From contig MU271522.1 of the NCBI GenBank assembly GCA_021432655.1, forward strand, positions 1-50,871: a stretch of 50,871 nt of DNA, in the 5' to 3' direction. This DNA comes from Atractiella rhizophila (lineage: Eukaryota). Below the pieces are notes generated by a model, which made no database searches, was not told where the DNA came from, and was given only the letters and a program-made list of their open reading frames with translations. Positions 41,054 to 50,870 of this stretch are shown piece by piece. The position numbers were made by a program, and so were the translations under genes. Position 1 is the stretch's first letter, and every line of letters begins with the position of its first letter.

Positions 41054-44047
41054 ATGTCCGCCAGCACTTCTCCAGCCATGGCCGCCGCCCAACTCAACGC
41101 CCTCTTCGCCCGCCTCTCAGCGCACTACTTCCGCCATCGACCCGCCTACCAGAAAGCGCTCATGGCTACTTGGTCCGCTTACATTCTCCTCAGCACCGCT
41201 AAGGGACTGGGGTTGTTCGGCACTCCGCCTGCTGCGAAGAAGAAGAAGGGAAAGGATGGGGAGAGTGTTGGTTCTGCTGCTGTGTCGGTGGAGGACGATG
41301 GAGCCGGAGGAGGGAGGAGAGGAAAACGGAAGGCGAAGGGTAGAGGAGAGGTATGTCTTTCTTCCATCTACTCCATCTCATGGATATGGATATGAAAATT
41401 AAATGGTTCATGTTTCTATGAAAGGTGGACGCCATCTTCTTTGCCCGAATCAAGAAGCTCCTCAAGCTCCTCTACCCCTCCCCGACCTCCTTGACGTCCA
41501 TCCTCCTCTTCTTCCACACCACCTTCCTCCTCCTCCGCTCCCTCCTCTCCGTCCTCGTCGCGCACCTCGACGGCCGCATCGTCTCCGCCCTCGTCCGTCG
41601 TCAGCCCGCCATCTTCGCTCGCAGGATCGCGACCTGGATGGCCGTCGCCGTCCCCGCCGTGTTTTGTAATTCGATGATTGAATACTTGCAGAGCAGGCTG
41701 GCGACGGAGTATAGGAGGACGTTGACGAGGGAGGTGGGGGAGACTTATTTGAGGGGAATGACGTTTTATGCGTTGGGGAATTTGGATGATAGGATCAAGA
41801 ATGCCGATCAACTCGTAACCGCTGATGTAGCTTTGTTCTCCAACTCTCTCGCTCTGATTTAGTATGTCTCTCTCTTCCTTTCCTTATCGTTCATCTTCAT
41901 TGACAATGTGTGAAGTGGAAACATTGCAAAACCAATCTTGGATGTCATACTCTACAATTACCAACTCTCCCGCTCCGTCGGCGCAGAAGCACTCATAGGC
42001 CTATCCTCCATCATCCAACTCTCCGCCATCCTCTTGCGCCTCCTAACACCCGCATTCGGGCGCTACGCAGCCGAAGAACAAGCATTAGAAGGCGAGTTCA
42101 GGTTCACGCATACGCGGTTGATTGAGAACGCGGAGGAGGTGAGCTCTCTTCCTCTTTTTGTGTAGATGTACATATTAGCAGGAGGAATGGCTGATTGATT
42201 GATGATTGGATGGATAGGTCGCGTTGTATAGGGGACACGAGGTTGAGAAAAATATCGTCGAAAGAGCTTACTACAGTTTAGTCAAGCACGTCAACCGGAT
42301 CTATCGCATGAGATTGCTTCATGGCATGGTGCGTCCCTTCCCATCATTGCATCCCATCGCGAGAATTCTGAACGGAGAATTGTGGACAAAGGTCGAAGAC
42401 GGAATCATAAAGTGGTTCTGGGGATCGCTTGGACTTTGTATCTGCGCCGTTCCCGTTTTCTTCAATTCTGGAGGTGGAGGAGGAGCGATGGATTTCGGTG
42501 GGAGGACGGAGAGTGCGTCTTTTTTCTCAGCTTTCCGTTTCTGAGACAGGGTGGACGTTTGCATTTTGGATGAACAAAGGAGAGCTAACGAAAGATGGGA
42601 TGGTGTCTAGGCTTCGTGACGAATAGGAGACTGTTGTTGAGTGCCAGCGACGCGTTTGGGAGGGTCATGTATAGCTACAAAGAGGCGCGTACTTTCTTTC
42701 CACTTCACAGATCACTACGTTAACGAGAGCTTTGAATCTTGCTTGTTTGGTTCGTGGTTACAGTTGGCCGAACTCGCGGGATACACTCTGCGCGTGTCGA
42801 GCCTGTTGGAGACCATGGAGGACATTTCGAAGGGCAAATTCGAGAAGAAACTGGTGTCTGGAGCCGAAGTCGGCGTCGAAGGACACCAAAAAGGTGCGTA
42901 GCATTGCCTTCCCTCTACCGTCTGCCTGTGCGCTAATGCGCTTTGGTATCGGATGGACCAGTGTTGAGCGGACGAGGAGAGATCGTGGAGTCGGAAGAAG
43001 ACATCATCTTCGACCAAGTCCCCATCGTCTCTCCAAACGGGGACGTCCTCATACCCAAACTCTCGTTCCACGTCAAACCAGGAAACCACCTGCTCGTCGT
43101 CGGGTGCGTTCCCCTCCCTCCCTTCCTTTGGCTCTGCCGTTTCTGACTGCTTGACTCGCTTTGTTTTGTTGGTGGATGGATGGGATAGACCGAACGGATC
43201 CGGGAAATCATCCTTGTTTAGGATTTTGGGTGGGTTGTGGCCGGTGTATGGAGGGAAGGTCACGAAGCCCCCGGCGAGAGAGTTCACGTATATTCCTCAA
43301 CGTCCTTATCTCTGCGTTGGGACATTGAGGGACCAGTTAATCTACCCCGATACGAAGGAGGAGATGATTGCTCGTGCGTATCCTCCCTTGTATTCGTCAC
43401 GCGTTTGGGGCTGCTGCTGATTCTGATATTTTATTCTGCGCGTCTTTGCGGCGCATGGATAGGAGGAGTAAAGGATTCGGATCTGGAGGAACTGTTGAAG
43501 AAGTTGGAGGTCCACCATATCCTGACTCAGGAAGGAGGCTGGGACGCGAAGAAGGAATGGAGGGATGCCCTTTCCGGAGGAGACAAGCAGCGTCTGGCCG
43601 TCGGGAGGCTGTTCTACCATCGTCCCAAGTATGCCATCTTGGATGAGAGCACCAGTGCGGTCACTCTGGAGATCGAGAGGGTCATGTATGAACATGCAAC
43701 CGGTGCGCTCTCATTCATTCACAGAGCTCTCGCTCCAATGGTACTAATCGTCGAATATGGTGCAGAACTTGGAATCACACTTTTGACCGTGTCACATCGT
43801 CCTAGTTTGTGGAAGTATCACAAATATATCCTTCAGGTGCGCCGCTTTCATGCTGTTTCTCATACAGTCCAGTTAAATGTGTGCGGTATGGGAACAGTTC
43901 GACGGACAAGGCGGGTACTCATTTGGAGAGCTTGAAGACCCTGAGAGGAGATTGGCTTTGGAAGAGGAGAAGAGGGATTTGGAGAGGAAGCTTGTGGATG
44001 TTGAAAAATGGAGGGAGAGGCTGAAGGAAATGAAGGAGAGAGCATGA
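41054..44047 (+). CDS. PXA2: Peroxisomal ABCD-family half transporter (long-chain acyl-CoA import), Pxa2-like
   Basis: [15 protein letters not shown]-like [23 protein letters not shown], Walker [25 protein letters not shown] signature, [29 protein letters not shown]. The C-terminal motif is more like Pxa2 than Pxa1. Confidence 0.9.
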
Positions 44048-45044: not shown

Positions 45045-46593
45045 GATGTTAATAGATCGAGAAAGAAGAGGAATGTTGATTACTGAACGATGTCCCTCTT
45101 GTCGAAAGTTGAATATCGATTGAATATTCAAGTTGTTTGGAAAGTTAAAGGAAGGAAAAAAGGAATGTGGGGGTTTGATAAGCTCTAAAAAGGGAAGTTG
45201 AAGTGCTTGAACGTCACGTCGGCAGATTCTGGCACATCGTCCCACCATCACTGTTTCATCGTGGGAACCTGACTGAGACAGGAGAGGTCCGGAAACAACC
45301 AAGTTCCCAAACCCCCCGCAGTCTGGTTGTTGGTCCCCTTGCAGTTGCAGCTCTCTCACCTCTAGATGCTATAGTGGAATCGCAAAAGCCCATGAGATCA
45401 TAAAATTCGCAAAAGCTAATGAGTTCATAAAATTCGATAATGTAGGAAGGAGGAATACAGAAACCTTGATCTTGAAAGTCATGAAGCATAAGCATTGGCT
45501 TCAGACTAGAACATATGCAGCAGACAATCGCTGTAGGACTGTTCTCAAAGTTCCAAGATGAACTGTGATCTTTGCTATGACATTATAGAACGCCATGATT
45601 AGAACCTTCAAAATGGAAATTGGAGAGGAAGGCAGAGAACCGTGCATCAGTGCAATAAACAAACCTGGATCCTGCTTGAATTGTAGATTTAATGTCCTCA
45701 GGGTCGGGACAAGCTACAGAAAAGAAGACTCTTCATTTCGGCCACAGTGATGGCAAAAGCGCGGCTGCTCGTTTATGGACGGCCTCAGAAGAGACAAGGT
45801 ACTGTAAATCCGAATCAATCTCGTCTCTTTATGAGCAGAACGTTCCCAATGTATTCATGATTGGGGAAGTCTGGGACTCTGAGTGAGTTTCCGCTGGGAT
45901 CTCACGTGCTGGTGCTAGGTACCGTTCCGTTCGTTGATTCAGCAACCTGTCTGCGGAGGAGACAACCGGTAGGACCTTACGAGAAGAGAGCCAGGCCTCT
46001 GGTGCAAGGAGAAATGAAGCTGCGAATTGCGAGAGGGTCAGAACGTTTGTTTGCCAGCTGCTGAGCCTGCTGAGCCACAATGCCTCGCTTTTCCTCTGGG
46101 AACTTGAATGAAGGACTTTGAAGGGAGAATAGAGTCACGGAGTCGGCGTCATCCTCACTTCGTGATTGTATCACCTGATAACAGCGAGGAGCCTTAGTCG
46201 GATGTGATGCCTAAGTCCTTTTGGCAAGGGGCGAACAGAAGCGTCTAACCCTGGTGCATTCTTCTGTAGCAAATGAGATGTTGAAGTTATCCCTCACTGT
46301 CATCCTAGATAGAAATGAGATGACATTGTTGTGCCTTTCTCACTTATCAGACTGTCACATCATTGTGCCTTTCCTTCAATCTTTGGTTACATTTGTCCAT
46401 TAAACACCTCATTTTGCTTTGGACCAGTGGAGTGTGGGTCTCAGTGCGGGGGTGGGTCGCAAGAACGTGTTGAACGACAATAACCTTTCTAAAGTCGAGG
46501 GAGAAGCAATATAAGTCTATCACCAACAGTGACCCAGACTTGTCAACAATCTGGGATCGCCACTTCCTGTTATAGTTGTTGTGTTCATCTAAC

Positions 46594-49500
46594 ATGATAT
46601 GTTTTCACCTCAAGTCATTCTCTCTTCTTCTCTGCCTCTGTCTACCGTATTTCGCGTTCGCACAAGATGCCAAAGAAGAGGAACCAACAAAGAGAGAATT
46701 TGACACCGGTGGAATTATTGGGTTATCTTTCTTTGTCTTATTCTGCGTCGTGTTCATCGTCAGCGTCTCAACTGTTATGTGTGTCATTGCCTTTATGTTT
46801 CTAATATTGCTGAAGGATGTCTGAAGACCAGGACTAGCCCGCTTAGTCTTCTGGTTCGCATGCATACCCTTCGTCATTGTAGAATGGACGATCCTGATTC
46901 CACAGGTCGTCCTCTGCATTCCAGAACATCGCCGCTTTTGGCTTGGGGACTGGATCAACCCGCACCGTCCAAGCATAAACAAAAGAAGACTCTCTCACAT
47001 AAAACATGTCATGAAGAAGCTAGTTTGCGATCCATTGTACAGCTTGAATTCAGCTGAAAGGCTTCGTTTTAGAAAGTGAGCCATTGCTCTTTCCAGGTTA
47101 TGCCTCCACTGACTCACACGGAATTGGTGTAAGGACAGTCGAACGGTATCTCGACACTTCGTACCAGTGCCGTTTTGCTCTCTTTCGTATTGTCTTCCCA
47201 ATTTTCGATAGCCGATTGAAGGAACTTTCTACTGAATTCTTGGGTTTGCCCCTTGAAGTGTTTCTTCCACTATGGGAGCAGAGGACTCGCGAAGTCCTTT
47301 CTGGCCTTCAGATGGCTGTTGGACTCCTTGATTATTCGGTGGCTGACACCGCATATCGATATCCCAATTCCCATCCCACGTTCGAGGAGTGGCTCAGGTC
47401 CGATCCTACGAGGCGGGGGATGGTCGAAGTTTACCACAACAATGCAAGGCTAAGTGAGCCTGACAAAGAGCAGGTGAAGCATATCGTCAAAGTCGCTCTT
47501 TTCTCCGATGCGCTTCAGCAAAATACTGGAAACGGGATCAGGAGCTCCATTCTGAGATGCTATCGGAAGGAGGTGGGAGATGATCCGGAGGAGCGTGAGA
47601 AGAGCCACTTGCATGATCTTCCATACCTTCCGCCCAGTTGGAAGAGAAAGAAGAGAACGGATCAAAACGGTACCCTTCTCACGCGCTGTGCAACTCTATG
47701 CCGTCTGTTTTATTTTCCTCCGCCGAAATTGTGTTGACAGTCAAATAGTTGACGTGGACGCTCCCACAAGCACTAATTTTTACGACGCACTCCTAGCCTC
47801 TCCCATCCTCGAGTATGAACGATCCATTCCACCAGAAGCAGCAGAATCACGTCTCAAGAGAATCGATACCTTGTTTACGGATGAGGATGCAATGGGAGAA
47901 TGGAAGGAGAGAATAATGAGCCTGAAAAATGAGGTTATCACTTCCATTCGTACCCGAGGGATCCCCGCTCACAGGCAGCACAGTTGGTTATGTTGTGTGC
48001 CATAAAAATCTTGCGATTAAGCGCCATAGACAGGCTGCCGCAGTCACTTAAGGCTGGAAAGGAAGGTGAAGAAGGTCTGCATATCATGTGAAAGCTTGCA
48101 TGGTACTAGAAGTGCTGATGACCGATGATTAGACGTCAAACACATCCTATATCTCGCCAAGCTCGCACCGGAATCTCAAGAATGTGAAGCAGTTCTGAAC
48201 TTAGTCGCACAATGGATCGTCATGGAGATGGCTGGGAAACTCCTAAGGCAGAACGTTGAAAACATCGGTGGGACGGATCAGGAGGCAGATACCGAAGAGG
48301 CTCTCACCCCAGCCGCATTTGTCGACCACACGATTGCCGCCCTAAATTTCATTGTCTTGCAGGTGAAAGCGCTAGGCGAAGGACCTTTCTTTGACCAAGT
48401 TACAGATAAGGTGTCCATTCTCCTTTGAAGTAAGCCCCAGTTGACGCCACACAGGCCTCCACAGATCTCGTAAACACGAAGGAAAATGCGGCGAACTTGG
48501 TTTCGGCATACATTGACGAAGCTTTGAGGAAACCAGGGGACCCATTGCAGGGTTCTCTTAATGACAATATCAAGCATGCGGTTGGGTCTTTTAGATATCT
48601 CCGGCGTCACAGAGAGCTAAAGCACATCCAGCTGCGCATATACTCTTTCCTTCAACAGAAGGATGCCTTCCTCGAGCTACACGCTCGACGACTTGCTCGG
48701 CGAATAGCAAAATTTGAATCCATCGATGAGGACAAGGAAACAGAAATTGCTGGGCTCTTCTCGGGGGCAGAATCAAGTTATAAACAAAAGATCATCCGAA
48801 TGCTTGCAGGTTCGTACCTTCTCGCATGACAATCGATCGAAATTGATTCGTAGATAGATATTGGCTGTTCAAAAACCCTGCTGGACCAATTTAACCAAGA
48901 GAGACAGTCTAGCATCAGTTTGTCTCGTTCCTGTGCCGGAAGAAATCTACGGTTTAAGAATAATATCACAGATTTTAACGCCATAGTACTATCCTCTTCT
49001 GCGTCGACTTTCCCACGCTCCGAGTGTGACGGCATGATACTTCCAAAAGCTCTAGAACCATTACATGACGAGTTCAATCAGTTTTTCGCTCGGGAGCAGC
49101 GGTGCGTTTGTTCCCCCGCTTGGTATGAACCTCACTCTTGCGCAGAGGACTGAAGGTGACACACGTACTCCATCTCTCCACTGTAGAGCTGCAAACACGA
49201 TATACGGCCGTCAAATACACGATCCAAGCATCGATTCCCCAAGCTGCGATCCTCCTTCTCTTCGCTGAAGACAAATCAAGTGCGAATCTTGCTACAATAG
49301 CGGAAGAGGTTGGATTAACAGAGAAGGCTGTGAAGCGACTTCTTAATGGACTAGTTAAGCAACATCTCTTATTGTTCGAAAATGAGGAATATCACCTGAA
49401 CCTGCGTGAGACCTTTCACTTTGAACTTAACAACGGGGATTGATTAAAGCTTAGAATTTGCCAGTAAAAAGGTCCGAATACCACTTCACCGCCTTAATGT

Positions 49501-49923
49501 GGATAAGGATAAAGAAGGAATATCAGCAGTCATGATCCAAGTCAATAAAAATCGACTCCTAGCCATCGAAGCGGCGGTTGTTCGGTTCGTCGCTCCTTCA
49601 TTTCACTCCTTCATTTCATTCATTCCCTATGTTCCCTTTAGGGTCATGAAATGTGCTAAACAGCTCACTCGACAAAGCTTAGTGGCGGTGGGTCCCATGG
49701 TACAAAGAGAATTAAGTAAACATTGTTCTGGGCCAGGATACGATCACTGCTCTTCATGCCCAATTCAGCCCTGCTGTGAAGGATATCAACATTGTCATCA
49801 GACGATTGGAGGAGAAGGAAATCTTGAAGAAGATTGATGGAGAAACTGAGAAGTTCGCTGTGAGTCAGTCAAACCCTTTTGCAATAACCTTGACTCTAGT
49901 TTGAACCGCAGTACGTGGCATAA
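46594..49923 (+). CDS. Divergent cullin (Cul1-like C-terminus), predicted to be fused to an N-terminal signal peptide and TM helices
   Basis: Cullin motifs: LVSAYIDEALRK, KDAFLELHARRLARRI, KIIRMLADI..SK.L..QF, AIVLS, LPKALE....EFNQFF, HLSTVEL, QAAILLLF, LNL.FASKKVRI, RLLAIEAAVVRVMK, F.P.V.DI...I..L.EKE.L, YVA*. About 14 GT-AG introns can be removed to give one open frame from ATG 46594. Confidence 0.8.
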
Positions 49924-49965
49924 CTCTGTGCAGCGCTCGCACAAACCATTTTAGAACGATGAGTT

Positions 49966-50016
49966 GAAAGGAGCATATCGTGGAAAGGAGCATGTCGTGG
50001 AAAGGAGCATGTCATG
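49966..50016. repeat. 17-bp tandem repeat x3
   Basis: GAAAGGAGCAT(A/G)TC(G/A)TG occurs three times just after the cullin stop. Confidence 0.9.
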
Positions 50017-50204
50017 ACGGAGGATCAGATCAAGCAAGAGAAGAGAATGTATTCACCAGTTGAATAAAAGACATCGAAGCTCGCAGGCACTTGGAATCAC
50101 AATCTGAAACCACAACAATTACCATCGCCAATATCCTGCTATCGGGCTGTGCGAGAGCATCATCTGTCACCTTAGACGGGAAAGACTGAGAACTCACAAA
50201 TTTT

Positions 50205-50870
50205 CTAAAACAGTCTCCAACGCATCTGTGCCATCTCTCCAGCATCCCTGCTGCTCTCAACATCCTCATCGCACGCTTCGCACCCCACGTTTCCAAGAAT
50301 GCAGGTTTGATTCCCCGTCCTCGTCCCGTCTCCATTTGCTTCGACCATAACCCACGAGGACAAGCCTAAAACCCGCAGAAAGAAGTCGAACATTTTCCAA
50401 CCCTCCAGATATCTCCAAACCGTACTCTCCCTCTTCGCTTCAAACGCAAGTCCGCTAGCAGGGCCTCTCTCAACGCTGTTGAACGATTCGGTGTCATCGG
50501 CAACATCTGAGACGTCCTCTCCCTCTTTGAGTGTGTCAGAAAACATATCCGCAAATCGTTGACGGAGAACAGCCACAGACGGAGCAACAAGGGCGCTAGA
50601 GACGTCGTCGCTTTCCTCACTCATATAGAAGGATGGAAGTGGATATGTGTTGTATAAGGACTCATCTTCTGCGAAAGAAGTTTCGTGGGCTCGAGGTTTG
50701 ACCATTCCATCTTCCTCGTCCGGCAGATCAACTGGAGGGTGAGGACTGTTTTGCGGAGGATTAACCGACGAACTGGTCGATTGGTTGAGCGATTGCACAG
50801 GTAAACGGGCTGGATGTTTGGTTGGAGGCTGGATTGGAGGTTGGGCTATTGGTTGGATTGGAAACTCAAC
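50205..50870 (-). CDS. Hypothetical P/S/acidic-rich protein, partial (runs off window)
   Basis: The minus-strand frame is open from the window end to 50205 (>220 codons); no domain recognised. Confidence 0.5.
   Translation of the reverse strand, partial: VEFPIQPIAQPPIQPPTKHPARLPVQSLNQSTSSSVNPPQNSPHPPVDLPDEEDGMVKPRAHETSFAEDESLYNTYPLPSFYMSEESDDVSSALVAPSVAVLRQRFADMFSDTLKEGEDVSDVADDTESFNSVERGPASGLAFEAKRESTVWRYLEGWKMFDFFLRVLGLSSWVMVEANGDGTRTGNQTCILGNVGCEACDEDVESSRDAGEMAQMRWRLF

Follow-up and report, generated by a model that had tools for sequence, protein, structure and literature searches.

Can a cullin, the scaffold around which a ubiquitin ligase is assembled, be an integral membrane protein? 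No class of ubiquitin ligases is larger than the cullin-RING ligases, whose cullin scaffolds are regarded as soluble. The question is raised by a gene at 46594-49923 on the forward strand of a 50,871-nucleotide (nt) stretch of DNA from Atractiella rhizophila (contig MU271522.1 of assembly GCA_021432655.1, positions 1 to 50,871; hereafter the window), for which the original prediction, made from the sequence alone, had proposed that a signal peptide and transmembrane helices are spliced in frame to a divergent cullin. Based on transcript structure, reading frame and paralogue conservation, all of which support this fusion, the best overall explanation is that the product of the gene is probably a cullin that carries its own membrane anchor. 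With RNA-supported junctions, it consists of 15 exons holding 873 codons and a single terminal stop; exons 46594-46778, 46827-47075 and 47134-47702 are in frame once the two introns between them are removed.

Is the hydrophobic 5' part present on the same transcript as the cullin? Logan contigs of four public sequencing runs were placed on positions 46200-50050, and spliced contigs were found in all four; each run includes contigs that lack short GT..AG stretches and thus derive from spliced RNA, even where the type of run was guessed. A 503-nt contig of run X15 (record 7), from a relative about 95% alike, is made up of 47134-47275, 46827-47075, 20 differing letters and about 92 nt ending at 46749. 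The joint 47075/47134 is listed directly in this run (side 142), and since record 7 joins all three pieces, exons 1, 2 and 3 lie on one molecule. The relative has 11 differing letters in exon 2; at the end of exon 1, its 20 letters replace 29 of the window, a change of -9 nt that keeps the frame, and these letters, read by hand, encode hydrophobic residues. In run X5, a root metatranscriptome, one piece of record 14 starts exactly at 46827, the loose end of 41 letters in front of it being similar to the last part of exon 1, and acceptor 46827 is used in both X15 and X5. A 349-nt contig of run X1 (record 1, with 1 differing letter in 304) covers 46475-46778 and ends exactly at donor 46778; its remaining 45 nt appear to lie at 46827-46871, because the depth bins are 2.28 and 0.76 (contig depth 3.64) and the X1 depth is 3.64 at 46857 and 46862. 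These 5' junction contigs stem from three studies (P1, P15 and P5), and the relatives among the contigs, 90-97% alike, keep the reading frame.

The presence of exons 1-3 on one RNA-derived contig means that the hydrophobic open reading frame (ORF) is not a separate mRNA in those runs. As far as the contigs allow, neither a separate mRNA nor an unspliced 46779-46826, two of the outcomes that the original prediction had set against itself, was found. The small membrane ORF that it described at 46576-46824 is present (82 codons from stop to stop, with the ATG at 46594), the introns of 48 nt and 58 nt that it removed are indeed removed, and the single frame runs through to Y-V-A and the stop at 49923. 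The four runs have no contig coverage upstream of 46475, which is not interpretable. The parts of the gene are as follows.

46475-46593, + strand: 5' leader, from an RNA-derived contig (X1 record 1); it has no ATG, and an in-frame stop lies upstream of the start.
46594-46662, + strand: start codon and signal-peptide-like segment, residues 1-23, beginning basic, with a hydrophobic core and, ahead of Gln24, small residues at -3/-1.
46663-46707, + strand: acidic stretch, residues 24-38, with a net charge of -2 over the 12-residue loop 24-35.
46708-46778, + strand: hydrophobic segment 1 (candidate transmembrane segment TM1), residues 39-62, the final codon being completed by base 46827.
46779-46826, + strand: intron 1, 48 nt, GTGTGT..GAAG, holding the stop that closes the unspliced small ORF.
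46827-47075, + strand: exon 2, with loop 63-67, segment 2, the basic linker, Met124 and the first cullin residues.
In exon 2, + strand: loop of 5 residues (63-67) between the hydrophobic segments.
46843-46920, + strand: hydrophobic segment 2, residues 68-93, in which Glu, Cys and Pro-x-x-Arg-Arg are conserved.
46921-47010, + strand: basic linker, residues 94-123.
47011, + strand: Met124, start of the cullin proper (residues 124-873) and rival ATG.
47076-47133, + strand: intron 2, 58 nt, GTGAGC..TAAG, with the joint 47075/47134 in X15.
47134-47702, 47749-47933, 47984-48074 and 48133-48410, + strand: exons 3-6, divergent N-terminal cullin half, from contig joints.
48455-48580, 48632-48809, 48858-48917, 48972-49101 and 49146-49405, + strand: exons 7-11, main cullin homology domain, from PF00888 and joints.
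49455-49584, 49642-49687, 49737-49859 and 49912-49923, + strand: exons 12-15, neddylation/winged-helix domain, from PF10557.
49649-49651, + strand: Lys of V-R-V-M-K, residue 817.
End at 49923, + strand: C-terminal Y-V-A and stop.

The 14 introns measure 44-58 nt each, and intron 1 at 48 nt is typical of this gene. The public model of the same gene, BT69DRAFT_1289125 (P0001, 673 amino acids), is 100% identical to exon 3 over 67% of the length of that exon, and the 15-exon model agrees with it at 95.5% identity over 669 aligned residues, the difference lying mostly in one mis-spliced block, besides 12 single substitutions; the window thus belongs to this species or to a very close strain or haplotype. 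P0001 begins at residue 205 of the RNA-supported product (window 47311) and around 48810-48971 reads other exons than the spliced contigs; the paralogue P0002 sides with the RNA version. As to the joint 49102/49147, it is placed with ends TG..GA in all four runs; a canonical GT..AG intron at 49102-49145 fits if the runs carry G against the A of the window at 49146, with Arg either way and the protein unchanged. By tblastn, no second copy of the cullin gene was found within the window.

Is the hydrophobic extension conserved beyond this one locus? A search of 1.84 billion representatives with the exon-2 peptide gave 5 matches at E<=0.001, of which 3 are real (P0003, P0004 and P0007), all of them A. 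rhizophila proteins; P0005 and P0006 were dropped, being repeat proteins with short multi-stretch matches. P0003 (166 amino acids) and P0007 (331 amino acids) both show a signal-like segment, a hydrophobic segment, a basic loop and a second hydrophobic segment that ends Leu-Cys-Ile/Asn-Pro-x-x-Arg-Arg, followed by a basic linker and the first cullin helix, and P0004 (298 amino acids) begins inside the second hydrophobic segment. The public model of P0007 holds the anchor and Cullin_Nedd8 (37.4 bits, cut-off 36.9) in one protein, with the middle of the cullin missing; in P0003 and P0004, Pfam matched no family. A further paralogue, P0002 (BT69DRAFT_1331677, 735 amino acids), is 47% identical to exon 3 and 55% identical over the cullin part. 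By this comparison, the extension is conserved as a predicted protein in at least three A. rhizophila paralogues. The family members BT69DRAFT_145614, BT69DRAFT_1297006, BT69DRAFT_1284143 and BT69DRAFT_1331677, together with BT69DRAFT_1289125 of this gene, are annotated only as "hypothetical protein"; the current annotation hides the anchor architecture, and the public models of the family are truncated or mis-spliced.

Word-based protein searches with the exon-2 peptide found nothing among proteins of 45-144 or 145-2000 amino acids. In metagenome contigs, examined for genomic DNA from relatives or paralogues, profile-derived patterns gave 90 pattern matches, none of them confirmed by tblastn, and there were 0 matches to a degenerate DNA pattern written for 13 residues of segment 2. 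P0003 and P0007 lie on the same public contig of 95,033 nt, with accession numbers five apart, a placement that suggests a local cluster of the cullin family.

Might the locus then be a decaying, transcribed but functionless member of a recently expanded, transposon-associated family? The models of P0003 and P0007 look broken or badly modelled, and a Plavaka transposase ORF lies 14 kb upstream of the gene. However, every one of the 15 exons is open and the splice sites are intact, spliced contigs occur in 4/4 runs and include the frame-keeping relatives, and the key cullin motifs are conserved among the paralogues, so that such decay is very improbable.

Where does translation begin? ATG 46594 is the first ATG from 46475 on (spliced leader offset 119), with A at -3 and an in-frame stop upstream, and the next in-frame Met is residue 124 (ATG 47011). 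The 123 codons between the two stay stop-free in 47 of 20,000 mononucleotide shuffles. The 61 codons directly upstream of Met124 are conserved as protein, with E 5e-17 to P0003 (48% over 50 residues) and E 5e-6 to P0007. P0003 has Leu at the position of Met124, so this paralogue cannot start there; and because the frame has no Met between its first residue and residue 124, exon 1 must be translated if exon 2 is. Judged by layout, exon 1 itself appears to be conserved in architecture rather than in sequence. The AT skew of -0.26 raised the idea of a T-rich promoter or leader in which the hydrophobic ORF would be spurious, an idea rejected on the RNA contigs and the paralogue conservation.

These observations also bear on the proposal that the hydrophobic exons form a spliced 5' leader or regulatory upstream ORF and that a soluble cullin is made from ATG 47011, or that both forms are made through different transcript starts or leaky scanning. 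The contigs are compatible with a second, shorter transcript, the part from Met124 has the normal length of a cullin at 750 residues, and the public model of P0002 starts at the equivalent of Met124. Against this stand the good context of the first AUG and the frame open throughout, the protein-level conservation upstream of Met124, the Leu of P0003 and the frame-keeping differences in length that relatives show where exon 1 ends. We therefore consider a soluble product decidedly unlikely: initiation at ATG 47011 is disfavoured by the position of the first ATG, the Met-free frame, the upstream conservation and the Leu of P0003, as read from the sequences, and the fused protein is very probably what the mRNA encodes.

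What kind of cullin is attached to this extension? PF00888 is matched on single exon frames at 37.5 and 47.1 bits (cut-off 33.2) and on full models at 134.7 bits (P0001) and 144.4 bits (P0002), the matches covering only profile positions about 228-259 to 603 of 620, and PF10557 is found on the exon frames too and is matched on P0001 at 48.4 bits (cut-off 36.9); the profile check that the original prediction had called for thus agrees with a cullin. Residues 223-563 of P0001 match the Cullin profile, which corresponds to the 873-residue model from about residue 427 (about 48180 onward). Against solved chains, Cullin-1 is the best match of both P0001 (E 1.5e-33, followed by Cul2 at 1.1e-27, Cul4B at 3e-13 and Cul3 at 2e-12) and P0002 (E 4.7e-37); on this ranking of solved chains, the C-terminal half is best described as Cul1-like. 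V-R-V-M-K aligns with I-V-R-I-M-K of Cullin-1 and keeps the Lys of the neddylation motif (residue 817), presumably the counterpart of Lys720 of human CUL1, to which NEDD8 is attached; P0002, P0007 and the paralogue consensus retain the motif as well. As to the N-terminal half, language-model features of P0002 residues 1-300 fall in cullin solenoid clusters (score 0.92, with 29/30 matches in the Cullin family), which we take as a lead only, and the structure comparison of the same residues gave TM 0.48/0.60 to a CACUL1 cluster; an AlphaFold2 model of P0002 from a 4-row alignment (pLDDT 41) is too poor to use.

Can the extension hold such a protein at a membrane? With Kyte-Doolittle means over 19 residues and a threshold of 1.6, segment 39-62 reaches a best mean of 2.81 and segment 68-93 one of 2.1-2.3; in the two cullin-only public models, no 19-residue window reaches 1.6. 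An insertion score was also computed, as a simple sum over a hydrophobicity scale without position weighting: it is -2.7 for segment 39-62 (paralogues -2.2 and -0.26), a marginal +0.6 for segment 68-93 (paralogues +2.8 and +0.2) and +4.1 for residues 1-23 (+4.2 and +9.0 in P0003 and P0007), too weak for a membrane span; across the cullin part it stays at +7.2 or above. The hydrophobic nature of segment 39-62 is unambiguous, and by these predictions the segment is able to span a bilayer. Residues 1-23 look like a signal peptide rather than a span: by eye, the window gene, P0003 and P0007 have small residues at -3/-1, and the start segment ends V-F-A in P0003 and V-R-A in P0007. The hydrophobic segments and the signal-like start that had been proposed are thus present.

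Segment 2 has further features. In exon-2 numbering, E19, L23, L29, C30, P32, R35 and R36 are invariant among the paralogues, and the invariant Glu, Leu and Cys, spaced i, i+4 and i+11, would form one face of a helix. The 35 residues that follow carry a net charge of +7 in the window gene and of +9 and +3 in the paralogues. On the hydrophobic exons, Pfam gave only sub-threshold matches, the DUF4395 match reaching 18.6 bits against a cut-off of 24.5. An AlphaFold2 model of P0003 from a 5-row alignment (pLDDT 58.5) has three long helices and is no help on topology. In front of segment 1, the relative of run X15 shows 9 differences within 20 nt at 46688-46707, 8 of them amino-acid-changing, with no listed difference in the flanks; this cluster, in the acidic stretch, may reflect rapid evolution of the stub, gene conversion or a misalignment at this spot.

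From these sequence features, the product is quite probably membrane-inserted. On which side would the cullin then lie? The original prediction had left the topology undecided, and its caution stands: the arguments from charge and from hydrophobicity conflict. A cleaved signal peptide followed by one true span gives a cytosolic cullin; followed by two true spans, it gives a lumenal one. The cytosolic orientation is favoured because the neddylation and C-terminal motifs are conserved and because NEDD8 and Rbx1 belong to a machinery of the cytosol or nucleus. A cullin in the lumen of the endoplasmic reticulum (ER) or outside the cell, acting for instance as a decoy or structural protein, would agree with a segment 2 near the insertion threshold in all three paralogues, with a 5-residue loop in the window gene that favours a tight two-span hairpin, with the positive loops before segment 2 in the paralogues and with the low-confidence AlphaFold2 model, which draws this segment as a straight 30-residue helix and not as a re-entrant loop. 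It is at odds with the location of the NEDD8 and Rbx1 machinery, with a neddylation motif and a C-terminal Y-V-A that the window gene and paralogues about 55% identical to it retain, and with a net charge of +7 to +9 that 2/3 paralogues carry over the 35 residues following segment 2, which is unfavourable for translocation; a lumenal or external cullin is hence unlikely. We lean, by a modest preference based on these predictions, towards a type I anchor with a cytosolic cullin, and give somewhat better than even chances to a cullin on the cytosolic side that serves as the scaffold of a ligase.

Several points weigh against an anchored, cytosolic cullin. The support for the anchored cullin consists of RNA contigs and sequence comparison, and contigs cannot show transcript starts or ends, minor isoforms or abundance. 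Among the differences listed between the window and its relatives in exon 2, 1 is synonymous and 4 are conservative replacements, with 62 further differences beyond those listed. Exon 1 alone is weakly similar to P0003 (E 0.035). The public model P0002 starts at the Met124 equivalent and P0001 at residue 205, both without the anchor, although both may be truncated models. The first approximately 300 residues after Met124 gave no Pfam match on exons 3-5 and no match to PDB sequences at E<=0.1. To these are added the coarseness of the insertion score, the dependence of the orientation on the number of true spans, the short loop between the segments, which suits a helical hairpin, and the charges in the near flanks of segment 2, which are ambiguous by eye.

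If the anchored, cytosolic arrangement is adopted, the following scheme can be proposed. The signal-like start would send the nascent chain to the ER and would be cleaved after A-F-A, in which case residues 24-38 would remain as a lumenal or outer stub. Segment 39-62 would cross the bilayer from lumen to cytosol, and segment 68-93, with its Glu/Leu/Cys face and Pro-x-x-Arg-Arg end, would lie at or in the cytosolic leaflet or pack on segment 1. The cullin would thereby be held at the cytosolic face of a secretory-pathway membrane, where its C-terminal half would pair with an Rbx1-type RING protein and receive NEDD8 on Lys817, and its divergent N-terminal half would recruit an adaptor, leading to the ubiquitination of membrane-proximal proteins. 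More tentatively, and at slightly less than even chances, Atractiella may have a small family of cullin-RING ligases with an integral-membrane scaffold in which segment 2 is more than an anchor. This segment could dock a membrane partner or substrate, or be a site of regulated release, as in membrane-tethered factors like Nrf1, which are freed from the ER.

The surroundings of the gene were also inspected. 3' of its stop, 49960-50015 holds about three head-to-tail copies of a 17-nt unit; the X5 contig is 17 nt shorter at 49978, and the relatives thus differ in copy number. On the reverse strand, a 420-codon open frame at 31662-32921 matches the Plavaka transposase family (PF18759, E 1.4e-40), and a 221-codon open frame at 50205-50870, with a proline-rich start and no Pfam match, runs off the end of the window and converges on the 3' end of the cullin gene. 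On the forward strand, an open frame at 43222-43932 has a weak match to an ABC transporter ATP-binding domain (PF00005, 27.8 bits) and is probably one exon of a larger gene.

What would an anchored cullin mean? Searches of full-text literature, with supplementary files outside their scope, found no cullin with its own membrane anchor. Passages of one paper from these searches list Trypanosoma cruzi cullins without such an anchor, and the literature naming A. rhizophila, among the items listed, is ecological or taxonomic. If the reading proposed here is true, this would be, as far as these searches show, the first cullin that is an integral membrane protein, and the scaffold itself could be fixed to a membrane. 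It would also offer a natural model for what spatial confinement does to neddylation, substrate choice and CAND1 exchange. At least five loci of the family occur in this single root endophyte, which indicates a lineage-specific expansion.

How does this protein compare with known systems? It resembles Cullin-1 (Cul1/Cdc53, the scaffold of the SCF ligases) in its C-terminal half, in the Lys of V-R-x-M-K, in the Y-x-A end and in the 750 residues from Met124. It differs from Cullin-1 in about 123 extra N-terminal residues, with the signal-like start and two hydrophobic segments, and in its first approximately 300 residues, which have no sequence match to the Skp1-binding repeats. Hrd1, Doa10/MARCH6 and the MARCH family are membrane-embedded RING ligases of the ER and endomembranes. 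The proposed likeness to these enzymes is that of a ligase core held at the membrane by its own transmembrane segments and facing the cytosol; they are no cullins, however, and their RING is part of the membrane protein, whereas the Atractiella scaffold would need a separate RING subunit and an adaptor. In SCF-betaTrCP with HIV-1 Vpu, a cullin-RING ligase is brought to the membrane by a receptor or viral adaptor, and the likeness lies in a cullin complex that works on membrane proteins at the surface of the membrane (PMC6212966). In the known recruited cullin-RING ligases, it is the receptor, the adaptor or the substrate that makes contact with the membrane; in Atractiella, by contrast, this contact would lie within the cullin polypeptide.

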